Below are positions 26,925 through 55,426 of a stretch of 64,000 nucleotides of DNA, one piece after another; position 1 is the first letter of the stretch; the number at the start of each line of letters is the position of its first letter. The notes beneath the pieces were generated by a model that did no database searches, was not told where the DNA came from, and worked only from the letters and a program-made list of their open reading frames with translations. The stretch is from an uncultured delta proteobacterium (GTDB lineage Bacteria; Desulfobacterota; Binatia; Binatales; Binataceae), in contig CAWCDG010000002.1 of NCBI GenBank assembly GCA_963794325.1, positions 544,001-608,000 of the forward strand, read 5' to 3'. Made by a program: the position numbers and the translations under genes.

Positions 26925-27036
26925 AATGTGAAACCCTCCGCGGGTTTCACGCTTCCGCGGCAGGGGTGACCCCTGCACCCAATATTTATAAATCCGGTTC
27001 CCCTTCCCGCTCGGGAAGGGGTTAGGGGTTAGGTTC
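26925..27036. repeat. Composite REP-like element, copy A
   Basis: GTGAAACCC/GGGTTTCAC hairpin + GCAGGGGTGACCCCTGC hairpin + CCCCTTCCC..GGGAAGGGGTTAGGGGTTAGG; homologous to 48727-48937. Confidence 0.8.
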
Positions 27037-36052: not shown

Positions 36053-36141
36053 ATACAGCGAAAAAGAATAACGACAAGAAAAAGGAAATTCCGGCTAAAG
36101 CGCCTTCAACCCTCGAGATAGAAATAGCAATAGGAATAACG

Positions 36142-36777
36142 ATGCGGATGAAATCCTCTGCTTTTGGGCGTTGGATCGGCGCGTTGGTCCTTTGCGGCAT
36201 CGTGGTGGCCTTATGCGTTCAGTTCGTCGACCGACCGGTAGCACTGTTCGCGAACGCCCATTTGGCACCGAAGAATTCGCTCGCCACTTCGCTAGACCTG
36301 GTGCTGCTATTCGTTCCGCTCGGCGCGCTGACTATCTTGGGCTGCGGCTGCACCGTGTTGGCAGGGCGCAGCTTGCCACGATTGGCAGAGGCAACGATGC
36401 TCGCGGGTTTCAGCCTGATGTGGGGATTGGCGAGCACTGCCTATCTGTTGAAGCCGGCGTTTGGGCGCATCGAGATAGCGACCTATCTTGCGCACCCCAA
36501 TCTCTATGGCTTCAAGCCGTTTCATGGCAATTCGAACTCGGGGTTTCCCTCCGGTCATGTGGCTATCGCATCGTCTTTCCTGCTGGTGTTCTGGGTTTTC
36601 TACCCGCGCGCTAGAATTTTCATTGGCGCCGTCATCGGCGCGGTGATGATCGGCTTGGTTCTGGCGACATGGCATTTCGTGTCGGATGTTGTCGGTGGCC
36701 TTTTCGTCGGCGCGACGGCCGCAGAAATGACGATCGCGCTCTTCCGGGCAGATCGCCACGACACAACCGTGACCTGA
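36142..36777 (+). CDS. PAP2-family membrane phosphatase
   Basis: KPAFGR, FPSGH, HFVSDV. Confidence 0.85.
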   Translation: MRMKSSAFGRWIGALVLCGIVVALCVQFVDRPVALFANAHLAPKNSLATSLDLVLLFVPLGALTILGCGCTVLAGRSLPRLAEATMLAGFSLMWGLASTAYLLKPAFGRIEIATYLAHPNLYGFKPFHGNSNSGFPSGHVAIASSFLLVFWVFYPRARIFIGAVIGAVMIGLVLATWHFVSDVVGGLFVGATAAEMTIALFRADRHDTTVT

Positions 36778-36970
36778 AGCCGCTTTGGTCGCCCACGACT
36801 CAGTGTTTTTTCGTGACGTGTCGCGGCTTGCGCCTGTAATTAGGCCAGTACCCCGCGGTGGCGTTGTTTACCGCGCCGTCCAAACCAGTCATTCTAGATA
36901 GACAACTCGCGCGCATCAGCGGTCCTCAACCACAACCAGCATCACCGCATCAGACTTTATAAACCAATTA

Positions 36971-37912
36971 ATGAGAATATTTTCGGACATTGAGACCGGC
37001 CTATCCGACGGTTCGTCCGTCGAACATGCCGACACTCGAGAGCGAATTCGCACCAATCTTGCCGGCGTCGGCGCGACCATCGTCCTTGCCAGCGCACGCG
37101 GCGGAGTCGGCAAGAGCATGCTCGCGGTGAATATCGCCGCGGCGTGGACGATGAAGGGCCGCAAGGTCGCGATCATCGATGCGGACCTGAATTCGCCCAG
37201 CATCGCGGCGATGCTCGGAATGAAAGCGCAGCGGCGCTACCCGACGATCAGCGGAATCGAGTTTGTGGCCGGGCCGCATGGCTTGCGCCTGGTCTCGAGC
37301 GATCAACTCCCGGGCGGCGAGCCGCCACCTATCAGCTTTATCCAGGATTACGATCAGGCCGACGGGAACGGGAGCGAGCCGGCCGCACCTGCGCCCACGG
37401 GTCCCGCGGAACTCGGCTATCGCGCGGCGCTCGGTCGAATGCTGGCGGAGTCGCAGTTTGGGAACGTGGATTTGCTGCTGATCGATCTGGCTAGCGGACT
37501 CGATCGATTGCATGCGCTCGCGCCTATGATGACGCTCGACGGCGTGCTGCTGCTGACACATCCGTCGGCACAGGACACGAGCGCCGCGCGTCACGCGATA
37601 AAGATTGGACGCGCAATCGGTGCGCCAGTCTCCGGCATTGTCGAGAATATGGCCGGCTTCAACTGCGACGGATGCCGCAGCGTGCGACCCTTATGGCCGG
37701 AAGGTGATCTCAACGGAGTCGCGCGCGAGAGTGGGGTGCCGATTCTGGGGCGGCTTGCGTTTGAACCGCGCCTCGCGGACAGCACCGATCGCGGCGTGCT
37801 GTTCGTCCGCGAGTACGCATCGACGCCGACGGGCAAAGTGCTCGTCGAAATCGCGAATCAGGTCGAAGCAATCGTCGGCGCGCGCAGTCGCGGTCTGAAT
37901 ACGCCCGCGTAG
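36971..37912 (+). CDS. Mrp/NBP35 (ApbC)-like P-loop protein, degenerate
   Basis: SARGGVGKS, DADLNSPS, GIVENMAGFNCDGC. Confidence 0.8.
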   Translation: MRIFSDIETGLSDGSSVEHADTRERIRTNLAGVGATIVLASARGGVGKSMLAVNIAAAWTMKGRKVAIIDADLNSPSIAAMLGMKAQRRYPTISGIEFVAGPHGLRLVSSDQLPGGEPPPISFIQDYDQADGNGSEPAAPAPTGPAELGYRAALGRMLAESQFGNVDLLLIDLASGLDRLHALAPMMTLDGVLLLTHPSAQDTSAARHAIKIGRAIGAPVSGIVENMAGFNCDGCRSVRPLWPEGDLNGVARESGVPILGRLAFEPRLADSTDRGVLFVREYASTPTGKVLVEIANQVEAIVGARSRGLNTPA

Positions 37913-37998
37913 ATGCCGCGCGCGACAGAAAGGAAATTTCCCTCAAGGTACCCAGCACCAAGCTGATTCACTGAAAAAAGACCCCCGCTGCCTGATTC

Positions 37999-39795
37999 TC
38001 AATCGCTATCGGTATCTTCGTTCTCGTTTTCGTTGGCCGCGGTCAGCACCGAGTCGGCGACCCGCGAATATTCAAACATCCCGGCGCCGCGATGTGCGCC
38101 CGCGTGGAAGCTCGCGAATCCGAGTGACGTGTAGATGCGCGACTGCTCCGGCCCCGGCCGCGACAGCGGAATGAAGCATTCGACGCTGCCTTCGAGTTCG
38201 CACGACGATCCGTCCGGGCGCGTCAACGATGCGAAAATACGATGCGGCGGCTCTTCGACCGACGCTGTTTCAATCGTGAGATCGAGCAGATCGCACGGCG
38301 CCCATCCACTGGGGCCGAGAATCCGTGCGCTTCGATTTGGCGCTGCGTCTGCCGTCGTGACAGAGCGCGCTTCGATCGCACGCGGCGCATCACTGTCCTC
38401 GAAGCGTGCCCAAATCATTCGGCGTGCGGTGAATTTCTGCGGGCCCAGTCCGGTGAACGACATTCCCGCGCGCGCAAATCCATTGACCGTTCGCGATGCG
38501 CCGCCGATGCAAACCTTTCCAACAACGCGACCGAAGGCGACGCTCGACGCCAGCGCATCCGCCCCAGCTCCATCCGCCGATAGAATCCGATCGAAGTCGA
38601 ACTCGCCGCCCGCGCGATCGCTTTCGAAACGCATCTCCACTTCGGTGGCGTCGTCGAGTCGCCCGGAAGCGAGCGCGCGTTCGATGCTCAGATACGCGGT
38701 AGCATCGGGCACGATTACGGCGGGTCCGTGGAACGCCAGGACGATCGATTCGCCTTCGCGACGAAGCGAGAGCGGGCCGTGAGTGACGGCGCTCGCGGAA
38801 CGCGCCGGCCGGCCTTCTGCAGTGAACAATGCCGCGCAGTGGCCATCGAACAACATCATGATTCGCGCGCCCATGCCCGCGCCGCCGACGTCGAAGCTCG
38901 CCATCGCACCGAACCGCGCGTCAGGATCATAGAATTCGATGCCGATACGTCCGGGCGCCGCAACCGTCGCGGCTGCCCCGATTTCGGATTTGGCGACCGC
39001 CGGGCGCGGTGCGCGATTTATCACGATGGGCGATCGCGACACTTGCGGATTGCCGCTTCTTGAAAAAACATCGGCGATTGAGTCCTCGCATCGGGCGCGC
39101 AATTCTCCGGGCATTCGCAGCGCGACCGACAGCTCGAGTTGGGCCGCATCGACCACGCCGCTCATCGCAATTTCGGAAATCGAGCGAAGCGGCGCGTTCG
39201 GACTCTGCCGATGACGCGCGGTGAAAGCCTGCAGCAGGTTCTGCAACCCGCCGCCCGGGTACCGCATCCCGTAGGTCGGTTTGATTCCGTGGCGATGCAG
39301 GCGCTCGGCGAGTCCCGCCAGCGGACCGTTGATAAAATCGTCACACGCAGACACGCAAGCGGACCCGGGTGGCCGCAGTTCGCCTCCCGAGTTTCTCAGA
39401 CCGAGCCCGAAATCGAGGCGCGGCTCGATAATGTTCCATCCGTGGATGAGCAGAACGGTGATGCGGCCATGACGCGCGACGATGGCGTCGACCCGGTCCG
39501 CGATCATTTCGAGCAGCCACGGCGCGCGCTCGATTATTTGCGAGAGGCGATTGCAATCCAGCCGGTTGCGATCCATCGCGACGTTGATCAGCGCCGACGC
39601 GCCCAGCCGCGCCGCCAGTCCGCGCGTGATTTCCGCGGTGTGAAGGTCGTTGACCTTGGGATTCAGCATCGAGCGCGTGCGCGGTTCCGCGTGGCCGCCA
39701 TGCGGCGCAATCAGGAGAAGGGGAGAATCGGAATCGATTACTTCGAGCCATGCCTCGGAGGCCGCGGTTGCGGTATGAACCCCGGATTCAGACAT
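37999..39795 (-). CDS. Two-domain hypothetical protein (N-formylglutamate amidohydrolase-like N-terminus, beta-rich C-terminus)
   Basis: APHGG, DLHT, RLDCNR, LIHG and QLEL pattern in the first ~240 aa; starts 3 nt after the pcs stop. Confidence 0.7.
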   Translation of the reverse strand: MSESGVHTATAASEAWLEVIDSDSPLLLIAPHGGHAEPRTRSMLNPKVNDLHTAEITRGLAARLGASALINVAMDRNRLDCNRLSQIIERAPWLLEMIADRVDAIVARHGRITVLLIHGWNIIEPRLDFGLGLRNSGGELRPPGSACVSACDDFINGPLAGLAERLHRHGIKPTYGMRYPGGGLQNLLQAFTARHRQSPNAPLRSISEIAMSGVVDAAQLELSVALRMPGELRARCEDSIADVFSRSGNPQVSRSPIVINRAPRPAVAKSEIGAAATVAAPGRIGIEFYDPDARFGAMASFDVGGAGMGARIMMLFDGHCAALFTAEGRPARSASAVTHGPLSLRREGESIVLAFHGPAVIVPDATAYLSIERALASGRLDDATEVEMRFESDRAGGEFDFDRILSADGAGADALASSVAFGRVVGKVCIGGASRTVNGFARAGMSFTGLGPQKFTARRMIWARFEDSDAPRAIEARSVTTADAAPNRSARILGPSGWAPCDLLDLTIETASVEEPPHRIFASLTRPDGSSCELEGSVECFIPLSRPGPEQSRIYTSLGFASFHAGAHRGAGMFEYSRVADSVLTAANENENEDTDSD

Positions 39796-39798
39796 TTC

Positions 39799-40566
39799 TC
39801 AGATCGACGCCGCTCGATGGGACTCAAGCACAAATCGCGCGTGGAGAATGAACGACGCGATGAAATAGTAAGCGATGTAACTCAGCCCGGCCCACAGCAT
39901 GATCGGGTTCACCGCCGGCAGCATCAGCAGCGATGCGATGGTCAGAAAGCCCCAGATGATTCCGAGCGTGAGCGTGAGCGGACGCAGCGGCACGGTTCGA
40001 TTTGGATAGATGTACTTGAGCGGCATGAACACCATCACCGCGAGAATCAGCAGCACGGCGACGTTGAATACGGTGCCGATCCCGAGACTGTAAAGATAAA
40101 ACGCGACGAGGTTCCAGTAATTCGGGAAGCCGAGGAAGTAGTGGTCGGGGGTTTTGGCCTCGGTGTGGCAGAATCCGTAAACGCTCGCGAGCATGACGAA
40201 GCAGGCCAGCGCCAGGCCCCATCGCGAGGTCGGGATGATGCCGGCCTCCAGCATCAGGAATACCGGCGCCACGGTGTACGTCAGATAATCGACGATGTTG
40301 TCGAGCAGCGCGCCGTCGAAGGTCGGCACACGTATCTTGACCATCAGCCAGCGCGCGAGCGGGCCGTCACTGCAATCGATAATCGTCGCGGCGCCCATCG
40401 CCAGGAATGACGCGCGGAAGTCACCGCGCGAGGCGAAAAAGATCGCGAGCAGGCCGAGCGCCGCGCCAAGCGCGGTATATAGATGTACGCCCCACGCGCA
40501 CGCCGTGAGAAATTTCTGACTCGGGAATGCCCGCGGCAGACTTCCGGCAGCGCTTGAGGTGCTCAA
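39799..40566 (-). CDS. pcs: Phosphatidylcholine synthase (CDP-alcohol phosphotransferase)
   Basis: AWGVHLYTALG, DCSDGPLAR, FDGALLDNIVDYLTY, DHYFLGFPNYWN. Confidence 0.85.
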   Translation of the reverse strand: MSTSSAAGSLPRAFPSQKFLTACAWGVHLYTALGAALGLLAIFFASRGDFRASFLAMGAATIIDCSDGPLARWLMVKIRVPTFDGALLDNIVDYLTYTVAPVFLMLEAGIIPTSRWGLALACFVMLASVYGFCHTEAKTPDHYFLGFPNYWNLVAFYLYSLGIGTVFNVAVLLILAVMVFMPLKYIYPNRTVPLRPLTLTLGIIWGFLTIASLLMLPAVNPIMLWAGLSYIAYYFIASFILHARFVLESHRAASI

Positions 40567-40567
40567 A

Positions 40568-41104
40568 TCACTTGTCCGGCTTGTAGTCGCGCGGCCCGAA
40601 GTATTCTTCGAGCACCGTCATAAACGGTCCGCATGCGCGATTTTTTTTCACGAGTATCATCGCCTCTTCGAGAGACATTTGCCGATATGCACGCAGAAAC
40701 GCAATCGCCAGCGTCGGCGCGCGATTCATCCCGGCATTACAGTGAAGATAGACGCGCGAGCCCGGCGCGACCAGATCGCGAAGATCGTTAAGCGCAACCT
40801 CGAGCCGTTCCGCCATCGCATCCGCGCTGCCATCCTGGATCGGCGTGCGCACATAATCGATTCCGTGCGCATCGTACTCCGCGCGCAGCTCGCGGTTATC
40901 CAACCCGTTCATCCGCAGATCATCGTCGTCCTGCAGGTTGTGAACGGCGGTAATTCCGTAGGTGTCCTTGAGCCATGCGATATCGGCATGACCGGGATAT
41001 TCGCCAACCAACAATTCATCCGAGATAACGCTGACCGACGGCCGCCGTCCGTTGCGAGTCGGGCGCGGTGCGTGCTCGGCGCGTTTGCTGAACCAATCAA
41101 CCAT
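40568..41104 (-). CDS. Dual-specificity phosphatase family protein
   Basis: HCNAGMNR (CX5R) motif, PIQD acid loop. Confidence 0.88.
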   Translation of the reverse strand: MVDWFSKRAEHAPRPTRNGRRPSVSVISDELLVGEYPGHADIAWLKDTYGITAVHNLQDDDDLRMNGLDNRELRAEYDAHGIDYVRTPIQDGSADAMAERLEVALNDLRDLVAPGSRVYLHCNAGMNRAPTLAIAFLRAYRQMSLEEAMILVKKNRACGPFMTVLEEYFGPRDYKPDK

Positions 41105-41157
41105 GATTCAAATGTAACCATCCAGAGGGTAGATATTCCACCGTCATCCGGGACGCA

Positions 41158-44100
41158 TCACGCCTTGGCGTGTCCTCTAGGCAGTTCGGTCGAGCGATCA
41201 ACTTTAGCGCTCGCTCGTTTGGCGTGCGGAGCCTCATTCGACGCCGCATCATCGGCTTCGCGAGTCAGCTTCAATTTTGGACGCAAACCGGAAAGCGCGA
41301 CGACTGAGGTGCGCATCAGGTCTGCGATTTTGCGATACGCGCCCGCGCCTTCCGAGCTGTTCGCGAGTTCGCGAAGCTCCGCCGCGGTGATCGCGCGACC
41401 GATGCGGACTTCCACCGGATGGCGCCGCGGAATGAGACTGCCCTTGCCCATCACGTCATGCGTGCCGCGAATCAGCACCGGCAGCACGTCGCATCGGCTG
41501 CGCAACGCGAGGAATCCAGCGCCGCTCTTGAACTCGTGGATCTCGCCGTCGCCCGAGCGCGTGCCTTCGGGGAACATCAGAACGCTCCGTCCCTGCGCAA
41601 GCTCGGCGAGCGCGTCTTCAAGCGACTCGAGTTGCGCGCGTTCGCGATCGAACGGCATCATCGAGGTGAAGTTTGCGGCGAGAAAACGTCGCGCCGGGGT
41701 GTTGAAGAAATAATCCTTGGCGGCGAGTACCCGGATGTCGTCGCCAATCGCGCCGAGCGCGTAGCCGACCAGGCTGAAATCGAGATGACTCGAATGATTC
41801 GCGACGACGATAAAGTTGCGATTGGCCGGGATATTCCCGCGCCCGAGAATTTTCGGCTTCAGCCATCCGTCGAAAACCGCGCGCGACGCACCGCGTACTG
41901 CAAAGCGGCCGATCCATTTTAACGGCGCCGGCAGGTACGGAGTGTAAGGCTCGGCGAACTTCGCGTATGAGGGCATGCGCGGACGTCCGTTGCCGCCGGG
42001 CTGAGTCGCGAGCAGTTGCAAGTCCGCGACGGTGCGCAGATCGGCAATTTCCTCCACCGCGATATCGCGACTCGCGCGTTCGCCGATCAGCTCGCCGATT
42101 TCGGCAAGCGCGAGCGAGTCGAGGCCCAGGTCTTCGATCAGCCGCGTCGCCGGCGTGATATTGACCTGCTCCGTTGTGACCGACGCCAGCGCTTCCGCGA
42201 GCCATGTCTCGATCTCGGAGCCGCTGCTGTCGACGTTGGCGTCGCCGGTGCGGACGTCGAGCATTCGCCGCAGCGTCGCGACTACGTCGGCGCGTTTGAT
42301 CTTGCGGGTGCGCGTGCGCGGCAGTTCGGTGTCGGTGAAGCGAAGAATCCTGATTCGTTTGTGCGAGCTGAGTTCGCGCGCGACTTTGTCGAAGTCGCTG
42401 CGCAGCTGGTCCTCGACCGCGCGACGGCTCTCGCCGCGGGAGTAGGCAGGCACGACCAGCGCCGCCACCTGCTCACCGCGGCCCACCTTCAGGCCGACGA
42501 CCGCCATCTCCTTGACGTACTGCGAGCGGCCGTAAATTTCCTCGAGCTCTTCGATGTAGATGTTGTTGCCGCCGGAATCGACGATGACTTCCTTGGCGCG
42601 GCCGACGATGTACAAACGCCCGTCGTCGTCGAAGCTCCCGAGGTCTCCGGTGTGAAGCCATCCGTCGCGCAAGACTTCGGCGGTCGCGGCTTCATTGCGA
42701 TAGTAACCCGCCATCACGTTCGGGCCGCGCGCGACTATCTCGCCTATCGATCCGGTCGCCGGCATCAACTTTATCTCGACGCCGTTCAGCGGCTTTCCAA
42801 CCGCGCCGACTTGCAGCGGTTCATCCGGTCGGGCGACGGCCAGCACGGGCGCCGCTTCGGTCAGACCGTAACCTTCGAGCAGCGGGATTCCGATATCGTT
42901 GAAAAACGCGGCGACGCGATGGGGCAGGGCGGAGCCGCCGCTGACGGCGAGCCGCAGGCGTCCGCCCAGTGCGGAATGAACCTGGCGGAAAACAATCGAG
43001 CCGAAGTTGAGGCCCGAGTTCGTGTCGAGCCGGCGATTCAGATCTCGCAGGTTGTCGAAGGCGGCGTGAAAGAAAGGGCCGCGCGCTTCGACTTCATCGA
43101 CAATCCGCCGATGGACCGCTTCCCACACTGCGGGCACTCCTATCAGCGCGGTCGGGCGAACGTCGGCGAGCGTGCGCGAGAGGGTCTTCGCATCGACCTC
43201 GAGCGGATAGACAATCGTCGCGCCGCTGGCGATCGGCAGCAGCATGCCGCAGGTGAACTCGAACGCGTGATGCAACGGCAGGAGCGACAGTACGACATCG
43301 TCGGCGCCCAGCAAAAACACGCGCGAGAGCATCGCAATCTCGGCGGCGAAGTTCGCATGCGACAGCATCACACCCTTGGGCGCGCCGGTGCTGCCACTGG
43401 TGAACAGGATCGACGCGAGCGCCTTTCGCTCAGGTGGCGGAGGAGTAGTTTTCGCGTCGCCGCGCAGGATGAATGGCCGAGCGAGTTCCGCGAGATCGAT
43501 CTCGATCAGCTTCGGATGATCGTCCTTTAGCGCGGAGCCTAAGCGCTTGTGCGTTGTGCTCGAACGCAGTGCAGCCGCGGGCTCCGCGATTTTGCAGAGG
43601 GGCACGAGCTCCTCGGCGGAAATCAGGTGGTCGAGCGGCACGGCAATCGCGCCCGCACACAAAATCGCGAAATAGCCGAGCACCCAATCAGGCGAGTTCT
43701 CACCGATCAGCAGCACGCGATCGCCGGGCTTGATTCCACGCGTGGCGAGCAGCAACGCAGCGCGATGCGCCCGGTCGCGCAGCTCGCGATATGTCGTCTG
43801 CGTCTGATCGCCCGACGGCCGCCGCGCAATCATCGCGACTCGCGAGCCGTAGCGGTCCGCGGCGCGCTCGAGCATATCGACCAGGCTCCGATGACGCGGC
43901 AGTGACTTGGCTCTGCCGCGCGTGTGCAGATCGAGCTGCGGGAAAATATGGCGCCGCAGGCCGGGCAGGTGAATGTTGATCCAGTAGTCGTGCCAATCGA
44001 TCAGATCGGGACGGAACGGATGATGTTCGGCGTCGGCGGGCTTGAGCGACGCATAAAGCGCGCGAATGTTGCTCGCATGAAAAGTATAAACGAGCTCCTG

Positions 44101-45528
44101 GATATAGGGGCGATAGACTTCGACCAGCTCGCGCGCGAGGTCGGTGTTTTCCTTGAACTTGTCGATCCCGCTCGCGATCTTTTTCGCGCGCTGATTTTCC
44201 TCACCCACCACGCTGCGCGCGAATGCCGCCGCTTGCTTGAGAATCCGCGGAACCGTGTTGCTCGCCAGGTCGTAAGTATTTTGCGAGACGACGACAGCTT
44301 CCAGATGCGGCCCGAGCCAGCGCATCGAGCCACTGTCCTTGCGATGCTCGCGGCGATTGCTTAGCGCAGTCAGCTCTACCAGCCGGCGCATCGGCAGCGG
44401 ATTCCGATCCGACGTGCACAGTTGGTAGATCGGCTTGTGCTTGCGTGACAGCAGCGCGCCAAGAATCGGGATCATCGCGTGCGCCGCGAGGTCGACCGGG
44501 ATCACGTCGAGCACCAGCTCAGCCTTGGCGGGATAAAATCGGTAGCCGCGGCCCGCGAGGTAAGTCAGCGGCGCGCTGGTGTTGACGCCCTGGTTCCATC
44601 CAGGGAACGGATCGCGCAGCGCGCTTTCGATCACCGCCGGGCGCACAACCGTCACCTCGAGCCTCTCACGATTCGCGAGCACCAACTGCTCGCCGAGGCT
44701 CTTGGTGTAGCTGTACGTGTTGGGCCATCCCCAACTCTGCGCGCGCTTGCGCCCGACGTCCTTGAGGCGCTCCTCGACCCATTGCTTGCGCCGGTGCTCG
44801 ACCGCGGACTCGCGCGGATTGCTATCGTTGTCGTTTTCGTTGTCTTCCTCGCGGCGAAACTCCGCATGCCGCAATTGATCGCGGGACTCCGCCTGCACTC
44901 GCTCGATCGCCGCAAGCGCATCGCGTATTTCGCGCTCGAGTCGAAACGACTTGCGCCCATTGGGACACCAGTCGTGCGGGATGTCGTCTTCGTAGCGATG
45001 CCCGTCGGCGCTCCCCGCGACGTAGCACGTCGATATATGCATCATCGCGGCGCCGACGTTGCCACAAAACTCGATCACATTGGCGACGCCGGTCGTGTTG
45101 ACCTCGATCGCTTTCTCCAGCGACGCCTCGAAGTTCACCAGCCCGGCGCTATGCACGACCGCATCGAGGCTGCCCGCCTTGAACCGCTTCGCTTCTTCGG
45201 CGAGCAGGCCTTGGTTGGTGATGTCGCCGGGAACGATGACGATCTTTTCTTCGATGTATCGATCGAAGCTGGCGCCAAGCTGTTCGCGCAGCGGCGCAAA
45301 TACCGGCGAGTCGAGAATCTCGCGGCGGAAGCGGCCGACGCTGCTCCGCCGATCGCCCCGAATCAGCAGATATACGCGTTCGATCTCGGGATGCCATCGC
45401 AACAGGATCGCGAGAAACACCTTGCCGAGAAATCCCGTCGCGCCAGTCAGCAGGATGCGACGGCCTTTGAGCACCTGCTCGAGCCCCGGCGTGGAGGCTC
45501 CGTTGCGCTTGCCGTTGCTACTCGACAT
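41158..45528 (-). CDS. elbD: ElbD-like multifunctional enzyme: fatty acyl reductase, adenylation domain, ACP, acyltransferase
   Basis: TGATGFLG and YSYTK (FAR); FTSGSTGAPKG, GYGLTE and TGDLG (adenylation); LGLDSL (ACP); NHSSHLD and FPEGTRS (PlsC). The domain order matches myxobacterial ElbD as recalled. Confidence 0.88.
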   Translation of the reverse strand: MSSSNGKRNGASTPGLEQVLKGRRILLTGATGFLGKVFLAILLRWHPEIERVYLLIRGDRRSSVGRFRREILDSPVFAPLREQLGASFDRYIEEKIVIVPGDITNQGLLAEEAKRFKAGSLDAVVHSAGLVNFEASLEKAIEVNTTGVANVIEFCGNVGAAMMHISTCYVAGSADGHRYEDDIPHDWCPNGRKSFRLEREIRDALAAIERVQAESRDQLRHAEFRREEDNENDNDSNPRESAVEHRRKQWVEERLKDVGRKRAQSWGWPNTYSYTKSLGEQLVLANRERLEVTVVRPAVIESALRDPFPGWNQGVNTSAPLTYLAGRGYRFYPAKAELVLDVIPVDLAAHAMIPILGALLSRKHKPIYQLCTSDRNPLPMRRLVELTALSNRREHRKDSGSMRWLGPHLEAVVVSQNTYDLASNTVPRILKQAAAFARSVVGEENQRAKKIASGIDKFKENTDLARELVEVYRPYIQELVYTFHASNIRALYASLKPADAEHHPFRPDLIDWHDYWINIHLPGLRRHIFPQLDLHTRGRAKSLPRHRSLVDMLERAADRYGSRVAMIARRPSGDQTQTTYRELRDRAHRAALLLATRGIKPGDRVLLIGENSPDWVLGYFAILCAGAIAVPLDHLISAEELVPLCKIAEPAAALRSSTTHKRLGSALKDDHPKLIEIDLAELARPFILRGDAKTTPPPPERKALASILFTSGSTGAPKGVMLSHANFAAEIAMLSRVFLLGADDVVLSLLPLHHAFEFTCGMLLPIASGATIVYPLEVDAKTLSRTLADVRPTALIGVPAVWEAVHRRIVDEVEARGPFFHAAFDNLRDLNRRLDTNSGLNFGSIVFRQVHSALGGRLRLAVSGGSALPHRVAAFFNDIGIPLLEGYGLTEAAPVLAVARPDEPLQVGAVGKPLNGVEIKLMPATGSIGEIVARGPNVMAGYYRNEAATAEVLRDGWLHTGDLGSFDDDGRLYIVGRAKEVIVDSGGNNIYIEELEEIYGRSQYVKEMAVVGLKVGRGEQVAALVVPAYSRGESRRAVEDQLRSDFDKVARELSSHKRIRILRFTDTELPRTRTRKIKRADVVATLRRMLDVRTGDANVDSSGSEIETWLAEALASVTTEQVNITPATRLIEDLGLDSLALAEIGELIGERASRDIAVEEIADLRTVADLQLLATQPGGNGRPRMPSYAKFAEPYTPYLPAPLKWIGRFAVRGASRAVFDGWLKPKILGRGNIPANRNFIVVANHSSHLDFSLVGYALGAIGDDIRVLAAKDYFFNTPARRFLAANFTSMMPFDRERAQLESLEDALAELAQGRSVLMFPEGTRSGDGEIHEFKSGAGFLALRSRCDVLPVLIRGTHDVMGKGSLIPRRHPVEVRIGRAITAAELRELANSSEGAGAYRKIADLMRTSVVALSGLRPKLKLTREADDAASNEAPHAKRASAKVDRSTELPRGHAKA

Positions 45529-47158
45529 CCGCAATTACCAGTGGCGGCAGGTGCAGGTAAGTTATTTCGGCCGAGCGCCCAAGCTCCGAGGTCGCCATCG
45601 CGATCGCTTCGTCGAGCGTGTCGGCCGCTTCCCATCCGAGGCGTGCTGCAACTTCGGGCTCCTCGCATCCCGCTGCGATCACCCGCCCGACGTGCTGGCG
45701 CGCAGGCTCGCCCCAGTACCACATGTAGAACGGATGCACGCCGTGATACGCGTTGCCGTAGCGGTACATATGGATGTACGTCGGGTTGCGCGCGAACTCG
45801 CGCTCGAAAGTTTTCTCGAGCTCGACGGCGTCGGTCGTCTCGGCGAGGCATCGATGGAAAAACTCGATGTAGCTCGGATGATGCTCGGGATGAAACTCGT
45901 CGCGCAGCGGATGACAGATGATCATCGTGCCGCCTTCACGCACCAGCGGCTTGTTCCGATACATGTTGAACAGGTAGCCAAGGCCGGTGCACTGCACGAG
46001 CACGGGATTCATGATCGAGTTCACATTGTACGGACAGATATACGGCACGCCGACGATCAAAATATCGGCCTGTCCCTTCACCGGCACCGCGTATTGCTGG
46101 AACGCGCGCGCGAGCGCCTTCTGATGCACCGTCTCGGTATCGCCCGCCCACACGCCGATCATTCCGTACGGCGCCGCGTAGTTGTGCAGCACGCTGCGGC
46201 GCATCTCGTTGGACATATTCCGCATCGTCCACTGAAAGCCCTTCAGCCGCGTGCGATCCCAGTCGGTGAACTGGTCCTCGTTCTTATGCAGGAAATCGAG
46301 CATCCCGCCGTACATCCGCGTATTCACCGCGGTCTCGATCTGGAAAATATTGACCGACTCGTGAATCAGCTTGCCCATCCGGTCCGACGAGCGATGCAGC
46401 GCCGAGCGCGTCGGGTCCATGTACGAGTGCGAGTCACGCAGCGTCCCGACGTTGTGGTGATGCCGCAAACTCTGATACGGCGCGAGTCCCACTGCGACCG
46501 ACTTGTGCCCGCCGTCCATCGGCACCAGGTTGATGTTCAAATAAATGAGCAGGTCCGAATCGACCGCGCGCCGCGACAGCCACACTTCCTCGCCGTGATC
46601 CGTCTTGCCGAGCATCGCGAGCTCGGCGCGATTTTCCGCGTCGAAGTTGTACAGCCGGTCCGGCCAGTACTGCTTGAAGGCGCGCTCACCGACGATGCGC
46701 CGAATCTCCGCCTCGGTCATCCGTCGATGCAACGACGTCGCGATCACGAGATGCACGTCGTCAACGCCATAGTCGGCCAGCGTCTGGAGCACTTGGTTGA
46801 GCAGCCGCTCGCGAATGTCGGGCCGACGCATCTGCGGCAGAGGCAGGCTGATGTCGTCGATCGCGATCGTCACGCGCATGTTGGGACTCAACTGCGCGAA
46901 CAGGGGATCCTGGTTCTCGGGATGGAGCAGGGCGTAGCGAATCGCCTGGTCGGCGTCGGCGACCGGGTCCATCGGCGGCGGCGGATAGATCACGCGCGTG
47001 CCGACCGGCAACTTCTCGAACAGAAATTCCTCGCCATACGGAATGATGCGGCGCTCCGAGCGCCGATTCACTTTGACCACCAGATCGCTGCGCGCGCCGA
47101 TTTCATGCCGCAGTTCGGCAGTTTTCAGTTCCTTGAGTTTTGCTTCAGGCCGCGCCAT
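45518..47158 (-). CDS. Lactate racemase (LarA/DUF2088)-domain protein, ElbC-like
   Basis: IAIDDISLP, ATSLHRRMT, DGGHKS, VREGGTMI; overlaps both neighbours. Confidence 0.8.
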   Translation of the reverse strand: MARPEAKLKELKTAELRHEIGARSDLVVKVNRRSERRIIPYGEEFLFEKLPVGTRVIYPPPPMDPVADADQAIRYALLHPENQDPLFAQLSPNMRVTIAIDDISLPLPQMRRPDIRERLLNQVLQTLADYGVDDVHLVIATSLHRRMTEAEIRRIVGERAFKQYWPDRLYNFDAENRAELAMLGKTDHGEEVWLSRRAVDSDLLIYLNINLVPMDGGHKSVAVGLAPYQSLRHHHNVGTLRDSHSYMDPTRSALHRSSDRMGKLIHESVNIFQIETAVNTRMYGGMLDFLHKNEDQFTDWDRTRLKGFQWTMRNMSNEMRRSVLHNYAAPYGMIGVWAGDTETVHQKALARAFQQYAVPVKGQADILIVGVPYICPYNVNSIMNPVLVQCTGLGYLFNMYRNKPLVREGGTMIICHPLRDEFHPEHHPSYIEFFHRCLAETTDAVELEKTFEREFARNPTYIHMYRYGNAYHGVHPFYMWYWGEPARQHVGRVIAAGCEEPEVAARLGWEAADTLDEAIAMATSELGRSAEITYLHLPPLVIADVE

Positions 47159-47966
47159 CCGAGCCTCGCGTCGATCGTTCACTGTCGTTGTTGAAATCAG
47201 GATCGTTGTCGAAATCGTCACGCAGCTTCGAATCCGCTGCCTTCTCGAAATGGATCACCGGCCATTGCCGGCTGAGCGCCGCGGCGCGCAATCTGCGATC
47301 GGGATTGACTGCGACCGGATGCCCGAGTTTCGCGAGAAACGCGGTGTCGTAGTGCGAGTCAGCGTAACCCCAGCAATCCGCCAGGTCCAAATCGTGCGAC
47401 GCAGCGTAGTCGTCGCACCACACCGCCTTTTCATCACCGGCCATCACCGGCTCGGCCAGCCGGCCGGTCGCGCGGCCGCGGCTGAAAACGAATCGGTTCG
47501 CCGCGAATTCCGCGATTCCAAGATGACGCGCGAGCGGCGCGACGATGAAATCCGGCGAACCGGTGACGAGCACCGGCTCGATTCCGGCCTCGCGATTCGC
47601 CTCGATCAACTCCACCGCGCGCGGAAAAAGATGGCCGATGAGGATTCGCTCGCAATATTCCTCGCCCAGCGAAAATAATCGGTCGCGTGAGACGCCTTTG
47701 AACGCCTCGAACAGCACCGTGTTCAAGGTTCGGCGGTCGCGATTCTCGGCGATATACAAGCGCGGGATTCGCGCGGCGAATCCGAGCATGTACGACACGC
47801 GCCCGCTCCATTCGCCGACGTTGGCGAGTGTGAAAATCGCCGCATGCACCAGGTTCAGATCAACCAGCGTCCCGTCGAGATCGTAGAATGCCACGCGGCG
47901 CTTCTGAGGCCTGGAAGCCTTGGGGGCGTGGCCGTTGAATGCTTTCTTGTGATTCGGAACTGACAT
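47145..47966 (-). CDS. HAD-IB family hydrolase, ElbB-like
   Basis: FYDLDGTL, VTGS, EKA, YADSHYD. Confidence 0.88.
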   Translation of the reverse strand: MSVPNHKKAFNGHAPKASRPQKRRVAFYDLDGTLVDLNLVHAAIFTLANVGEWSGRVSYMLGFAARIPRLYIAENRDRRTLNTVLFEAFKGVSRDRLFSLGEEYCERILIGHLFPRAVELIEANREAGIEPVLVTGSPDFIVAPLARHLGIAEFAANRFVFSRGRATGRLAEPVMAGDEKAVWCDDYAASHDLDLADCWGYADSHYDTAFLAKLGHPVAVNPDRRLRAAALSRQWPVIHFEKAADSKLRDDFDNDPDFNNDSERSTRGSDGAA

Positions 47967-47967
47967 G

Positions 47968-48636
47968 TCAGTCTAGTTGAGGCCCAAAAAAAGAGCGATT
48001 GCCCACCGGTCTATCGCCAGCCGCTTCTTCACGCTTAGGTACGAATTTCAACAATTCCGGACGCGCGACTCCGCACAAGCCGAACTGCAGTATTTCCTCG
48101 ACCAACGCCGACGGGTCGACGTCGTTGCCGCGCGAGAGCATCCCGATCAATTCCTTGATTCCGCCCAGGATCGCGTACGACACCGCGCGCGTATCCGAGT
48201 TGCGCACCAGGTTCATCTCGATTCCGAGATCGAGCGATCGTTTAATCAGCGCTGCGATCCGATCGTAAAAATCCTGGATCTTGTCGTCGAGCTCGTGATC
48301 GAATCCGGTCGAATGATTGAGCAGTATGTCGGTAAGCTCCCGCTCCGCCATCGCATAGCTCAGCACCCGGGTCAGATTCGCCCGCAACTGATCGACCGGG
48401 TCCGGCTCCCCGGGTCCCGGGCGCAGCCGCTGAATCCGAAGCGTCAATTCGGTGACCGCCTGCTCGAGCAGCTCCTCGAACAGGTCCTTCTTGTTCTGGA
48501 AATAAAGATAGAACGTGCCACGCGCGATGCGGGCGCGGGCAATGATGTCCGCGACATTAGTCCTATGATATCCCTTGCGGGCAAAGATGCGCTTGGCGTG
48601 ACGCAGCACCTGCGCGCGTCGGGCTTGACGTTCCAT
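47968..48636 (-). CDS. TetR/AcrR family regulator
   Basis: FARKGYHRTNVADI...ARGTFYLYFQNKKDL. Confidence 0.93.
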   Translation of the reverse strand: MERQARRAQVLRHAKRIFARKGYHRTNVADIIARARIARGTFYLYFQNKKDLFEELLEQAVTELTLRIQRLRPGPGEPDPVDQLRANLTRVLSYAMAERELTDILLNHSTGFDHELDDKIQDFYDRIAALIKRSLDLGIEMNLVRNSDTRAVSYAILGGIKELIGMLSRGNDVDPSALVEEILQFGLCGVARPELLKFVPKREEAAGDRPVGNRSFFGPQLD

Positions 48637-48661
48637 CGCGGCTTCTCCGTGGATACTTTTC

Positions 48662-48691
48662 AGCGTAGTTCGAGACGGCGCGCAGTGTCAA
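48662..48691 (-). promoter_or_regulatory. Putative sigma70 promoter of the tetR-elb operon
   Basis: TTGACA-N18-TACGCT upstream of tetR. Confidence 0.55.
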
Positions 48692-48726
48692 ATCAGTAAT
48701 CGGGGGAAGGGTGAATCACTTTATCA

Positions 48727-48937
48727 AATGTGGAACCCGCGGTGGGTTCCACACCTCCTTCGGCAGGGGTGACCCCTGCACCCGGTGTTAAAAAGTTGGA
48801 AGATAGGACCGCGCCGCTTCCCTGCCTCTGTTCCCCCTTTCCGGGTCGGAAAGGGGGTGAGGGGGATGGGACGACGCGATTCCCACGAAACTTCCGGTTC
48901 TCCTTCCCTCGAGGGAAGGGGTTAGGGGTTAGGTTCC
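48727..48937. repeat. Composite REP-like element, copy B
   Basis: GTGGAACCC/GGGTTCCAC + GCAGGGGTGACCCCTGC + two REP units (48830-48870, 48894-48937). Confidence 0.8.
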
Positions 48938-48992
48938 TTGCATCGTTCACCACGCCCCGTGATCGTGCTACGAAAGTGCTTTGGAGGATCAG

Positions 48993-49445
48993 ATGAGCGA
49001 TTCAAAATTTTGGGACAAGGTCCATGCGACCGCCGCGAAGGCGACCTGGGCGTATCTCGCAACGGCCAGCGGGACTCAGCCGAAGGTCCGCGTCGTGCAT
49101 CCCGCGTTCGAAGGCGAGCGGGTCTGGGTCGCGACCGGACGCGCGTCGGCCAAGGCCCGTCATATCGACAAGAACTCGAAGGTCGAGCTGTTCTATCAAA
49201 TCGGCGCCGAGATGGTTCATCTGACGGTCACCGGCAACGCGAAATTCGTCGAAGATATCGCCGAAAAAAAGCGAATCTGGAACAGCAAGGTCTTCGATTA
49301 CGATCTCGCGCAGTTCTGGCCGGGCGGTCCCGAGTCCAAAGACTTCGGCCTGATGCTGATAACACCCGATCGCGTCGAGCTAACCTCCCTGCCCGAAATG
49401 ACAACGGGGATAAAGCCCGAAGTCTGGCACGCCCCGCGCAAATAA
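48993..49445 (+). CDS. Pyridoxamine 5'-phosphate oxidase family (FMN split-barrel) protein
   Basis: LATASGTQPKVR, KARHIDKNSKVEL; GGAGG RBS. Confidence 0.85.
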   Translation: MSDSKFWDKVHATAAKATWAYLATASGTQPKVRVVHPAFEGERVWVATGRASAKARHIDKNSKVELFYQIGAEMVHLTVTGNAKFVEDIAEKKRIWNSKVFDYDLAQFWPGGPESKDFGLMLITPDRVELTSLPEMTTGIKPEVWHAPRK

Positions 49446-49461
49446 GTTCTCGCCTGCGATT

Positions 49462-49500
49462 GTTCCCCTTCCCTCGAGGGAAGGGGTTAGGGGTTAGGTC
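49462..49500. repeat. REP-like unit
   Basis: CCCCTTCCCTCGAGGGAAGGGGTTAGGGGTTAGG. Confidence 0.85.
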
Positions 49501-49504
49501 GGCC

Positions 49505-50005
49505 TCACCCCCGCACGCGCTCGCGCGCGAAAATCGCGCGCTCTTCCGCGGTCATTTTTTCGCGGATGCGCGATCCTTTCCCCAGATGCCGATATTCTCC
49601 GCCTTCTGAAAAATATTCCTCGTATGGCTGCGGCGGGATCTCCTCTGCCGGAGGCGTGTCGGTGATTTTCACGCCGAGCACGTCCTCGACCAGATTGCTT
49701 TCGTACATCCGGACCGCGTCGTAGTCCGTCAGCAGCGCGCATACTTCGACGCAAATGTAGCATCCGATGCATTCCTGAAATCGATCCTGCACCGGCTGCA
49801 CGCCGCGTCCCGGAAGCGTGCCGGCCGCAAGGTAATCGATGCATTGCACGGGGCAGAACTCGGGACATTTGCCGCACGGGAAGCACAGGTTCACGTCCAT
49901 GAACGCGACTTCGCGCGGACGCTTTTTTTTCTGTCCGACTTCCTCGGGAGTCTCGGGTATCCGGTCTTCCTTGAGCCGGCGCTTGATGATGTCGATAGCG
50001 CTCAT
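49505..50005 (-). CDS. 2x[4Fe-4S] ferredoxin-like protein
   Basis: CFPCGKCPEFCP and CIGCYICVEVC. Confidence 0.88.
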   Translation of the reverse strand: MSAIDIIKRRLKEDRIPETPEEVGQKKKRPREVAFMDVNLCFPCGKCPEFCPVQCIDYLAAGTLPGRGVQPVQDRFQECIGCYICVEVCALLTDYDAVRMYESNLVEDVLGVKITDTPPAEEIPPQPYEEYFSEGGEYRHLGKGSRIREKMTAEERAIFARERVRG

Positions 50006-50060
50006 AGCTCTATAGTCACGCTATTTCACAGCGCGCGGTCAAGCGTTCGACTGAATCGGG

Positions 50061-51629
50061 TTATCTGACTGCGAAAATACGGCCGCTCGACGTACCGACG
50101 TACAGCATTCCCGATGCTGACGATGCGGCGGTCGTGATCTTGCCGAAGCTGCGCGACGTCCAGACTTTGCTGCCGTCGCCCATCAGCACCGCGCCCACGT
50201 CTTCAGTCGAAGCATCGAAGGCGCCGTCGTTGCCGAGCACAGTCAGGCCCGCGTCGCCGGGGATCAACGTCGAGTCTTTCCATCGGACCTGGCCGTCGGT
50301 AGTCACGCCATAAATCGTATCGGAGCCGGCGAAGATCGTTCCTGATGGGGCAACCACCGGTCCCGCCGTGACCGGATGCGCGCTGTTGACGTTCCAAATC
50401 GGAGCGCCCGTGCGCGCATCGATCGCATACACGCCGCCACTGGCCGAGCCTGCATAAACGACATCGTCAGCGTAGCCGACCGCGCCCGAAAATCCGCCGT
50501 CCGGCTGGAACGTCCATATCACCGCGCCATCTGACCCGAGAGCCGTGACCGCACCTTGCGACGCTCCCACCACGACTCCGTCCGAAGTCGTTGCGGCACT
50601 GGTGACCCGTCCGAGATTGACGCGCCAATTTAACGAGCCGCCGGTGCTGACCGACACGAGGTCGCCCCCGCTGGATGCGTAAATCGCGTGGTCGGTCGTC
50701 GCGATCGGTCCAACGCTGTCGCCTATTTCGAGATGCCAGAGTATCGCGCCGTCAGGGCTGAAAGCCGCCAGATCCGACTTCGACGACATCGCGATCACGG
50801 TCCCATCGGCCAGGACTGCCGACGACGAGCCGTCCGCAGGGCGACGCATGGTTTCCTTGCCCTTGGAATTCAGGCCGTGCAGCTCGCCATCTAGCGTGAT
50901 GAAGAATATCGAACCGTCGGCGCCGACTGCGATTCGCCCGCGCAGCTCGGCGCCGGGATCGAAGGTCCACATCAGGATGCCCGCACTGCGCGCCGATTGC
51001 GCGGCGGTGCTCGCCGTCTCGGTCTGCGCGGTGCCGGGGATCGGACATACAAACGGGACCGCCGGAGTGCAATTGAGCCCACCTGCCGGATTGTTGACGT
51101 CCTCGTAAACCCCGACGCTGACGAACTGGCTGCTCACCCCGGAGCTGCTCGCGAGAATGCAGACGCATCCGGCAAACCCGGTCGTAAATATGCCGCCCTG
51201 CGCGGCCGTAGAAGGCGACTGGAAAACGGTATTGTCCGTCGAGATCCACATGGTCGAGGTGCCCCTGGTTATATCCACGAGCTTGACCTGGGTTTTTTTG
51301 GTGAAGGTGCCGATCGCGTTGAACGAAACCGTCCCGCCAGTCGGCACGCTGCCCGGCTCGATGGATGTGCTGGTCGCCGACGCGCGCGGCGTCAACGTGG
51401 GCGTCACGGTTTTTTTAGGAGTCGGCGTTTTCGTCGGCGGCGGCGTCATCGACGGCGTGGGCGAGGGCGGAGCGCCGGTCGAGATCACGATTGCTCCGAG
51501 CGCGAAGCCAGGAGTCGGGATTGCAGTAGCGGTTCCGCTGCCGCTGCTACTGCAACTCAACAGAATTGCTCCGAAAACGAACAATACAACTGGCCCCACC
51601 ACCAGCCATCTAAGCCACCGCGACAACAT
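50061..51629 (-). CDS. Lipoprotein with Pro/Thr linker and PQQ-like (BamB-type) beta-propeller
   Basis: Lipobox LLSC; repeated G...W blades; YVGTSSGRIFAV. Confidence 0.82.
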   Translation of the reverse strand: MLSRWLRWLVVGPVVLFVFGAILLSCSSSGSGTATAIPTPGFALGAIVISTGAPPSPTPSMTPPPTKTPTPKKTVTPTLTPRASATSTSIEPGSVPTGGTVSFNAIGTFTKKTQVKLVDITRGTSTMWISTDNTVFQSPSTAAQGGIFTTGFAGCVCILASSSGVSSQFVSVGVYEDVNNPAGGLNCTPAVPFVCPIPGTAQTETASTAAQSARSAGILMWTFDPGAELRGRIAVGADGSIFFITLDGELHGLNSKGKETMRRPADGSSSAVLADGTVIAMSSKSDLAAFSPDGAILWHLEIGDSVGPIATTDHAIYASSGGDLVSVSTGGSLNWRVNLGRVTSAATTSDGVVVGASQGAVTALGSDGAVIWTFQPDGGFSGAVGYADDVVYAGSASGGVYAIDARTGAPIWNVNSAHPVTAGPVVAPSGTIFAGSDTIYGVTTDGQVRWKDSTLIPGDAGLTVLGNDGAFDASTEDVGAVLMGDGSKVWTSRSFGKITTAASSASGMLYVGTSSGRIFAVR

Positions 51630-55386: not shown

Positions 55387-55426
55387 GGTTCCCCTTCCCT
55401 CGAGGGAAGGGGTTAGGGGTTAGGTT
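55387..55426. repeat. REP-like unit
   Basis: CCCCTTCCCTCGAGGGAAGGGGTTAGGGGTTAGG. Confidence 0.85.

Follow-up and report, generated by a model that had tools for sequence, protein, structure and literature searches.

A probable composite membrane-lipid operon in Binataceae joins elb-type genes to a separable module centred on phosphatidylcholine synthase

A seven-gene operon was analyzed in a 64,000-nucleotide stretch of DNA (the window, whose numbering is used throughout) from an uncultured delta proteobacterium of the Binataceae (GenBank assembly GCA_963794325.1, contig CAWCDG010000002.1, here contig C2:544001-608000). The assembly amounts to 4.45 Mb in 10 contigs and is 85% complete. NCBI assigns close homologues of the window's proteins to Candidatus Binatus or Binataceae. 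The locus is probably a composite membrane-lipid operon under a TetR-family regulator, in which a core of elbB, elbC and elbD homologues is followed by a separable module centred on a phosphatidylcholine synthase (Pcs). The first module, comprising a HAD-IB phosphatase, a LarA homologue and an ElbD-like multidomain enzyme, would represent the core of the bacterial alkyl ether-lipid pathway. The second comprises a dual-specificity phosphatase (DSP), the Pcs-type enzyme and a 598-residue protein, together with a secreted zinc phospholipase C in many relatives, and appears to be built around a single class-wide Pcs.

The operon consists of seven co-oriented open reading frames (ORFs) on the minus strand, from 37999 to 48636 (Table 1). 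With the longest ORFs, the junctions in operon order are +1, -77, -17, +53, +1 and +3 nucleotides. The -77 junction becomes a 14-nucleotide overlap if the LarA homologue starts at ATG 47158, its likely start being either this codon or GTG 47080, and the -17 junction becomes an 11-nucleotide overlap if the ElbD-like enzyme starts at ATG 45528, giving a protein of 1456 residues rather than the 1458 read from a TTG. A preliminary description of this DNA had reported seven co-oriented genes that nearly touch or overlap, together with their identities; the ORFs lie at those positions with those junctions, and Pfam and NCBIfam agree with the identities. It had also reported intact fatty acyl reductase, adenylation, carrier-serine and PlsC motifs in an enzyme of 1456 residues, which holds for the start at ATG 45528, and had called the third gene a LarA domain, of which the LarA identity stands and the word domain does not, the protein being a full-length LarA homologue. 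The G+C content is about 0.60-0.63 over the locus, with no compositional break.

Table 1. Features of the operon, with positions in the window.
Feature	Position	Strand	Basis
TetR-family regulator, 222 aa	47968..48636	-	Pfam TetR_N E 8.6e-16 and TetR_C_24
HAD-IB phosphatase, 273 aa, ElbB position	47145..47966	-	Pfam HAD E 1.7e-29; NCBIfam TIGR01490
Full-length LarA homologue, ElbC position, longest ORF 567 aa	45518..47221	-	NCBIfam NF052592
ElbD-like multidomain enzyme	41158..45534	-	Pfam domains, intact motifs
Dual-specificity (Cys-X5-Arg) phosphatase (DSP), 178 aa	40568..41104	-	Pfam DSPc E 3.4e-16
Pcs-type CDP-alcohol phosphatidyltransferase, 255 aa	39799..40566	-	CDP-OH_P_transf; five NCBIfam Pcs models
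Two-domain protein, 598 aa	37999..39795	-	AlphaFold model and fold comparison
Promoter-like site	48662..48691	-	Sequence and conservation in relatives

The ElbD-like enzyme carries the domains NAD_binding_4 (residues 29-354), Sterile (467-531), AMP-binding (555-945), PP-binding (1111-1172) and Acyltransferase (1231-1355), that is, the order reductase, acyl-activating, carrier and acyltransferase by which elb clusters are recognized. All of its motifs are intact: GATGFLG at residue 31, YSYTK at 274, TSGSTGAPKG at 712, GYGLTE at 888, GLDSL at 1137, HSSHLD at 1247 and FPEGT at 1321. As the preliminary description had stated, this is the order of Myxococcus ElbD, to which PMC9131029 ascribes FAR1-like, acyl-CoA synthetase, carrier and AGPAT-like acyltransferase domains. 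According to the same source, the M. xanthus operon contains elbA and elbE, both encoding NAD-dependent epimerase/dehydratases, elbB for a HAD-like phosphohydrolase and elbC of unknown function. In the window, the positions of ElbB and ElbC, ahead of ElbD and with overlapping reading frames, are taken by the HAD-IB gene (TIGR01490 at 112.8 bits, cut-off 98.3; DLDGT at residue 29) and the LarA homologue. By their sequences, the first four genes are thus best identified as a TetR regulator plus homologues of elbB, elbC and elbD, i.e. the known elb ether-lipid core. The operon shares with M. xanthus elbA-elbE (Lorenzen et al. 2014 as reviewed in PMC9131029; MIBiG BGC0000871) a HAD-like gene, a gene of unknown function and ElbD in the same order and orientation, a likeness drawn from domain order and gene descriptions rather than from sequence; it differs in having neither elbA nor elbE, in the TetR gene at its head and the phosphatidylcholine synthase module at its tail, and in coming from another phylum. 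ElbD is split in the metagenome-assembled genomes (MAGs) G002, G006 and G021, likely through assembly errors.

The LarA homologue scores 838.2 bits against NF052592 (LarAH14/15/16), for which the cut-off is 740, and is the only Lar_N protein of the window's genome. ElbC of M. xanthus is presumably LarA-like itself. The closest solved structures are 9q3j and 9q2u (E 1.5e-27), and pairwise alignments to both show that Asp123 (ribose), His165 (catalytic), Lys240 (cofactor tether) and His256 (nickel) are kept, these being the residue roles described for single-histidine LarA-like enzymes in section 2.5 of PMC12611868. The spacing of 16 residues between Lys240 and His256 equals that between Lys183 and His199 of LarA-Ip. 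The second catalytic histidine of the two-histidine racemases is absent, Val233 aligning with Asn187 of LarA-Bw; section 2.1 of PMC12611868 describes LarAH groups 14 and 15 as being without it too, and a table in PMC7583248 lists LarAH14 from Frankia as having no activity on the substrates tested. This residue pattern fits a cofactor-bearing enzyme that is not a racemase. The protein resembles LarA-Bw and LarA-Sp (9q3j, 9q2u, 9q3k; PMC12611868; LarAH14/15 of Desguin et al. 2020) in its length of about 500 residues, its cofactor residues and its single catalytic histidine, but has valine rather than asparagine at the second-histidine position and leucine at the position of Lys78, and its context is lipid synthesis, whereas LarA-Bw and LarA-Sp are tentatively tied to carbohydrate metabolism in PMC12611868. 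The genes larB, larC and larE lie on contig C4 of the same genome, each scoring over its cut-off. Wherever both were searched, the LarA homologue and ElbD are jointly present or jointly absent, bar one case truncated by a contig end. Among the papers searched, none combined 'ElbC' with 'lactate racemase'.

In the second module, the Pcs-type enzyme matches five NCBIfam Pcs models (NF045884-NF045888) over its full length with E values from 2.4e-53 to 5.7e-37, and the next family, archaetidylserine synthase, follows at 1.2e-8. Its translation contains the cytidine diphosphate (CDP)-alcohol motif DxxDGxxAR-x12-G-x3-D-x3-D (DCSDGPLARWLMVKIRVPTFDGALLDNIVD), in which we take the 12-residue spacing between AR and G to mark Pcs. 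Six CDP-OH transferases are encoded in the window's genome; this one is of the Pcs type, and the others resemble PgsA, PssA and inositol-phosphate-type enzymes. Close relatives are named phosphatidylcholine synthase by JGI and by family only at NCBI. The enzyme thus has in common with the bacterial Pcs proteins of NF045884-NF045888 full-length similarity, the 12-residue spacing, an integral membrane character and a size of about 250 residues, and is set apart by scores below the curated cut-offs and by its fixed place, in Binataceae, between the DSP gene and a new two-domain protein. All 41 sampled genomes of the class (39/39 without the unpublished ones) carry one Pcs homologue each, among them G010 and 16 genomes of other families, the latter all without full-length ElbD. 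Its occurrence once per genome across the class, also where ElbD is missing, argues that this gene is the lineage's general phosphatidylcholine synthase rather than an ether-lipid accessory; judged by sequence and distribution, it appears to be the ordinary, class-wide single-copy enzyme. The DSP that precedes it has the active-site loop HCNAGMNR, of the HCX5R type, and scores 59.7 bits against DSPc (cut-off 33.5). Among solved structures, it comes closest to two plant glucan phosphatases with non-protein substrates, LSF2 (E 2.3e-17) and SEX4.

The last gene encodes a protein of 598 residues with no Pfam or NCBIfam family at E <= 0.01; its match to FGase (PF05013, residues 24-85) reaches 16.3 bits against a cut-off of 28.9 (E 0.012). 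An AlphaFold model built from 49 sequences (mean predicted local distance difference test score, pLDDT, 90.5) resolves two domains. Residues of about 15-251 adopt the formylglutamate-amidohydrolase/poly-gamma-glutamate-hydrolase fold, with matches to Atu2144 (2odf; VIA Z 16.8, root-mean-square deviation (rmsd) 3.5 over 200 aligned residues), FGase (2q7s; Z 16.6, rmsd 3.1 over 194) and poly-gamma-glutamate hydrolases (Z 13.7-14.0). Residues of about 275-581 form an AttH/DUF7064 double beta-barrel, matching AttH (2ich; Z 21.2, rmsd 3.2 over 249), 25-phosphosteroid lyase (Z 20.4), fungal Diels-Alderases (Z 19.4-20.4) and kievitone hydratase (Z 18.1). The protein thus shares the folds of both PF05013 and AttH/DUF7064; PF23212 is found on some of its relatives and was undetected on the window's own protein at E <= 10. 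The likeness extends to the FGase/PghP family (2q7s, 2odf, 3a9l; Z 14-17) for the N-terminal domain and to AttH/CrtC-like enzymes (2ich, 9g4c, 7a0t, Fsa2/CghA; Z 18-21) for the C-terminal one, but no listed structural match covers both domains, and identities are 9-18%. His32, Asp50, His118 and Glu221 are invariant in the 49 family members, the pattern that would be expected of a metal-dependent amidohydrolase, and on the model the protein may be a hydrolase fused to a hydrophobic-ligand pocket. A search of the PDB sequences with the family profile returned nothing at E <= 10.

This is a rare family, matched at E <= 0.001 by 298 of 1.84 billion representative clusters, and the ESM Atlas clusters are from Binatota only. 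Distant paralogues (31-44% identity) occur in 13 of 16 other-family genomes, unlinked to Pcs. Among 80 metagenome loci of distant relatives, none adjoins a Pcs, ElbD, LarA or HAD homologue and one lies near a weak DSP match. In 18 of these loci, picked for length, 92 neighbouring ORFs were annotated; they are heterogeneous (luciferase-like monooxygenases, acyl-CoA dehydrogenases, MaoC, enoyl-CoA hydratases, cytochrome c/EB_dh and type I phosphodiesterases), so that no function can be derived from them. Luciferase-like monooxygenase genes adjoin the distant members in 4 of the 18 annotated loci (among loci L146, L150, L157, L224 and others), and several other members have as neighbours acyl-CoA dehydrogenase, MaoC or enoyl-CoA hydratase genes, or else a pair of cytochrome c/EB_dh and CarboxypepD_reg genes. 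The 598-residue gene is split or carries single in-frame stops at G003:C17:129932-131722, G015:C72:103081-104865, G012:C1:998925-1000722 and G021:C25, again likely through assembly errors.

The conservation of the operon was examined by scanning a species-level genome collection with a 20-sequence alignment of the 598-residue family; this gave 160 relatives, of which the best 80 were analyzed; apart from a small number labelled otherwise, these are Binataceae-type MAGs. The order of the seven genes is conserved in 19 loci of the same genus as far as contig ends allow, and all seven were detected in 51 of the 80 loci. The genes for DSP, Pcs and the 598-residue protein are contiguous in 73 of the 74 loci with at least 1.5 kb of upstream flank, the exception, L138, being without Pcs. 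An upstream ElbD gene in the same orientation is found in 64 of the 71 assessable loci, that is, the 64 with ElbD and 7 without it despite at least 8 kb of upstream flank; of the remaining loci, 3 have too little flank for a call and 6 have less than 1.5 kb. The idea that the three downstream genes might be unlinked to the elb core in relatives is therefore contradicted, and the linkage proposed in the preliminary description is upheld. In the divergent members G015 and G017, the last three genes are not directly downstream. In G015, ElbD and DSP are 8.2 kb apart, with an opposite-strand lipid-transport set of the PqiA-PqiB(MlaD)-PqiC type in between (L093:3896-7809).

The two modules are also found apart. 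In three of the seven loci without ElbD (L070, L087 and L090), the downstream genes directly follow TetR, and their genomes, which are MAGs of unknown completeness, gave no ElbD at E <= 1e-80 and no Lar_N; in two further genomes, the elb core is on other contigs than the downstream module. Across 24 genomes of the genus, ElbD occurs in 22 and the 598-residue orthologue in 22, G010 and G019 having neither (21/22 each, G010 again having neither, without the unpublished G019 and G024). At the same chromosomal spot, G010 has ferredoxin, a phospholipase C-like gene, DSP, Pcs and the convergent Mrp gene, with TetR, the elb core and the 598-residue gene absent. In other families, Pcs stands without any other operon gene within 8 kb in 9 of 9 loci. 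On this comparative evidence, the elb core, TetR and the 598-residue gene appear to be Binataceae additions around Pcs. The view that the downstream genes are an ether-lipid-specific extension does not hold, because DSP, Pcs and the 598-residue protein persist without ElbD and LarA in the three genomes, and Pcs is found in 41/41 genomes, 16 of them without ElbD.

An eighth gene, which codes for a secreted protein of 285-319 residues bearing a signal peptide, separates ElbD (or TetR) from DSP in 30 of the 80 loci (e.g. L040:11371-12228 and L097:7676-8635). It matches Pfam Zn_dep_PLPC and S1-P1_nuclease and is 43%-100% identical to two query copies. Because of its spread in the family, this zinc phospholipase C-like gene was probably part of the ancestral arrangement and was later lost in part of the genus; none was found in the window's genome by tblastn at E <= 1e-3. 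Its place just upstream of DSP across the depth of the family raises an alternative, which we regard as improbable, namely that the downstream module is a choline-salvage or lipid-turnover unit unrelated to ether lipids that came to lie beside the elb core by chance insertion. The secreted phospholipase C would release phosphocholine from foreign lipids; choline would be freed by DSP and built back into phosphatidylcholine by Pcs, and a different lipid would be the substrate of the two-domain hydrolase. The phospholipase C, DSP and Pcs set standing alone in G010 and the survival of the module after loss of the elb core agree with such a unit. However, the window's own genome is without the phospholipase, DSP has no signal peptide, the cluster contains no phosphocholine importer, and the linkage to ElbD behind a single conserved promoter, seen in 64 of 71 assessable loci, speaks for more than chance.

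The putative promoter consists of TTGACA (48691-48686), an 18-nucleotide spacer and TACGCT (48667-48662), about 25 nucleotides upstream of the TetR start codon. A sigma-70 consensus scan of 37000-50000 listed no promoter-like site, this one being passed over because TACGCT equals TATAAT at just 3 of 6 positions. When the regions upstream of TetR are aligned for the window and 27 relatives, TTGAC is present in 28/28 (TTGACA in 25) and TAnnnT at identical spacing in 28/28, while the flanks and the sequence further upstream diverge; a CGGAG-type ribosome site precedes the TetR ATG in most of them. Such fixed spacing amid diverging flanks gives good comparative support for a real promoter, in line with the site proposed in the preliminary description, and the aligned regions include two genomes without the elb core. 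TetR likewise stands first in relatives' clusters, including those without the core; its top NCBIfam match is the fatty-acid regulator FadR, at 58 bits, far under the cut-off of 200. Terminator-like sites found by consensus scan numbered 13 against 11.2 expected, which is uninformative, and an Rfam scan of 36000-50500 at E <= 0.1 gave no match and hence no known riboswitch or leader.

For the composite operon that we favour, the following scheme is proposed from the domains and from M. xanthus ElbD. The ElbD-like enzyme would activate a long-chain fatty acid, load it onto its own carrier domain and reduce it to an aldehyde or alcohol, and its PlsC-type domain would then acylate a glycerol-phosphate backbone. 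The LarA homologue would probably supply a hydride-shuttling step on a glycerol or hydroxy-carbonyl intermediate. Pcs would convert CDP-activated glycerolipids, diacyl and 1-O-alkyl-2-acyl alike, to phosphatidylcholine with choline, and the phosphatase and the two-domain protein would most likely serve the supply or turnover of head-group alcohols and the hydrolysis of an amide or ester on a barrel-held lipid. Since both modules would be transcribed jointly, alkyl ether lipids and, among other products, ether-linked phosphatidylcholine are predicted. All lipid products are predictions of this kind, in contrast to the gene content, motifs, folds, synteny and separability of the modules, which were observed directly.

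Several findings weigh against this scheme. Neither an ElbE-type NAD-dependent epimerase/dehydratase as a separate protein nor an elbA-type gene was found in the operon or beside it, a search of the remaining genome for the former not having been made, and the absence of such a reductase gene from the operon is as the preliminary description had it. In M. xanthus, according to PMC9131029, inactivation of elbE lowered ether lipids and was not rescued by extra elbD, and neither acyltransferase activity nor fatty alcohol was detected with ElbD in vitro. Because the elbE-type reductase is missing, the ElbD-like enzyme might instead make free fatty alcohols, aldehydes or neutral lipids of the wax-ester type rather than glycerol ethers, as its N-terminal fatty acyl reductase domain of the 'male sterility' type would also allow. 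However, this reductase is still fused to a carrier and a PlsC-type acyltransferase with intact HSSHLD, the gene is tightly linked to the HAD and LarA-type genes in the manner of ether-lipid clusters, clusters restricted to elbD and elbB homologues are described as common in sponge symbionts (bioRxiv 10.64898/2026.06.23.733905), and an elbE-like gene may lie elsewhere in the genome; we therefore hold this the least probable of the readings considered. That the plasmalogen desaturase PF10520 gave no match in the window's genome is uninformative, since the control matched nowhere either.

The assumed cofactor chemistry of the LarA homologue meets objections as well. By pairwise alignment only, Leu126 occupies the position of Lys78, which is lysine in 9q3j and 9q2u and arginine in racemases, and thereby replaces the Arg/Lys through which LarA enzymes bind the phosphate of the cofactor and the carboxylate of the substrate. 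LarC (PF01969) is present in 15 of 16 other-family Binatia genomes (G025-G040), of which just 5 have a Lar_N match, and is kept in 3/3 Binatus-type genomes without the LarA homologue (G041-G043). The presence of larB, larC and larE is therefore not specific evidence that the cofactor is used here. The idea that the nickel cofactor is made only for ElbC was rejected, given LarC in 11 other-family genomes without Lar_N and in all three genomes that have lost the LarA homologue. Where Lar_N is missing, LarC may serve a different function, or the nickel-pincer cofactor may have a user that has yet to be recognised. Among the sequencing runs listed for the locus, 20 are of soil DNA and none is of RNA.

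For the second module, the Pcs-like protein scores 127-181 bits against cut-offs of 300-440, below all five curated models (the top score being 181.2 bits against 440 for NF045886), although these cut-offs belong to narrow, genus-level equivalogs, and it is hard to see what a phosphatase would do in a one-step Pcs reaction. Both points would be accommodated if the module made a non-choline head group in two or three steps, yielding a new phospholipid: the transferase would join CDP-glycerolipid to a phosphorylated or N-acylated alcohol, DSP would remove the phosphate, as in PgsA/Pgp or PIP synthase/PIP phosphatase pairs, and the amidohydrolase would remove an N-formyl or N-acyl group. The phosphatase gene fixed just upstream of the transferase gene in 73/74 loci, with a 1-nucleotide gap in the window, the dephosphorylation of sugars rather than proteins by LSF2 and SEX4, and the four invariant residues in the amidohydrolase fold are all compatible with this. 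Against it stand the full-length resemblance to Pcs, which far exceeds that to archaetidylserine synthase, and the 12-residue spacing; moreover, Pcs homologues at 42-51% identity occur without the phosphatase or the 598-residue gene within 8 kb in 9/9 other-family loci, and the Binatus genome G010 has phospholipase C, DSP and Pcs without the 598-residue gene. A new head group is consequently considered unlikely, though less so than a choline-salvage unit.

With respect to known systems, elb-like cluster families have been reported in Poribacteria and Acidobacteriota, with cblaster matches in >150 organisms, in a preprint (bioRxiv 10.64898/2026.06.23.733905) that describes some families limited to elbD and elbB homologues, adjacent genes for CDP-alcohol phosphatidyltransferases and for a phosphatase, and alkyl ethers together with a phosphocholine head group in Acidobacteriota subdivision 4. 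The sponge-symbiont clusters described there share with the window an elbD and elbB core outside myxobacteria and variable head-group neighbours, but are marine and from other phyla. In the main text of the preprint, the terms Binat*, phosphatidylcholine, LarA and DUF2088 have no occurrence; its figures and supplements fall outside this count. Because ElbD homologues with CDP-alcohol phosphatidyltransferase neighbours are already published for Acidobacteriota and Poribacteria, calling the locus an undescribed pathway in a non-myxobacterial lineage, as the preliminary description did, was an overstatement. It is one more form of a known lipid gene cluster, not a new pathway: both the kinds of gene and elb clusters with head-group neighbours had been described, and what is new here is the separability of the modules, the class-wide Pcs, the fold assignment of the 598-residue protein, the cofactor-residue pattern of the ElbC-type protein and the conserved promoter. 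A search of the literature on Binatota, Binatia, Binatus or Binataceae with ether lipids, ElbD or plasmalogen found no relevant paper.

Binataceae are widespread uncultured soil bacteria, and with their conserved elb core they are candidates for the origin of alkyl glycerol ether lipids in soil. As the only conserved partner of the LarA-type enzyme is ElbD, the unknown ElbC step becomes testable, and the 598-residue family, with its rare combination of an amidohydrolase fold and a lipid-pocket barrel, offers a concrete handle for function finding. A bolder proposal, which is doubtful and in our estimate no likelier than the choline-salvage unit, is that the LarA-type gene encodes a nickel-pincer 'hidden redox' enzyme for the ether-forming step of an AGPS-independent bacterial pathway. 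The C2 hydroxyl of acyl-glycerol-phosphate would be transiently oxidised, the acyl group exchanged for the fatty alcohol made by ElbD and the hydride returned, and in Binataceae the product would be handed to a lineage-specific head-group set. If this were true, Binataceae and other abundant soil lineages would need nickel for their alkyl ether lipids, and the fusion of amidohydrolase and AttH domains would amount to a lipid-processing enzyme of a new kind.

The operon is flanked on one side by a convergent Mrp/NUBPL ATPase gene, a position kept in 73 of the 80 relatives' loci, and by PAP2 phosphatase, DksA, MiaB, LolA, FtsK and RNase J genes, and on the other by a ferredoxin gene and a PQQ-type propeller gene. 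The PAP2-superfamily lipid phosphatase gene (36142-36777, plus strand) is located 1.2 kb past the operon end, beyond Mrp/NUBPL. The gap between ferredoxin and TetR (48637-49504) measures 868 nucleotides and ranges from about 165 nucleotides to 2.8 kb across the 16 genus loci in which both genes were found; no Pfam-bearing ORF was detected in it, the ORF at 48938-49609 giving no family. It holds two copies of a perfect 22-nucleotide palindrome, CCCCTTCCCTCGAGGGAAGGGG, which looks like a REP-type intergenic element and lies at 27000-27021, 48900-48921, 49465-49486 and 55391-55412; the palindrome thus occurs 4 times in the window at <=3 mismatches, where 0 are expected by chance, and 58 times in the genome at <=1 mismatch. 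A 10-bp inverted repeat, TGTGGAACCC-N5-GGGTTCCACA, which may be a mobile hairpin or an operator, is located at 48729-48753, upstream of the -35 box by about 40 nucleotides. Five relatives (L033, L035, L040, L045 and L048) share the 9-bp core, GTGGAACCC/GGGTTCCAC, either unchanged or with 1-2 changes in the arms; it is missing from the others.

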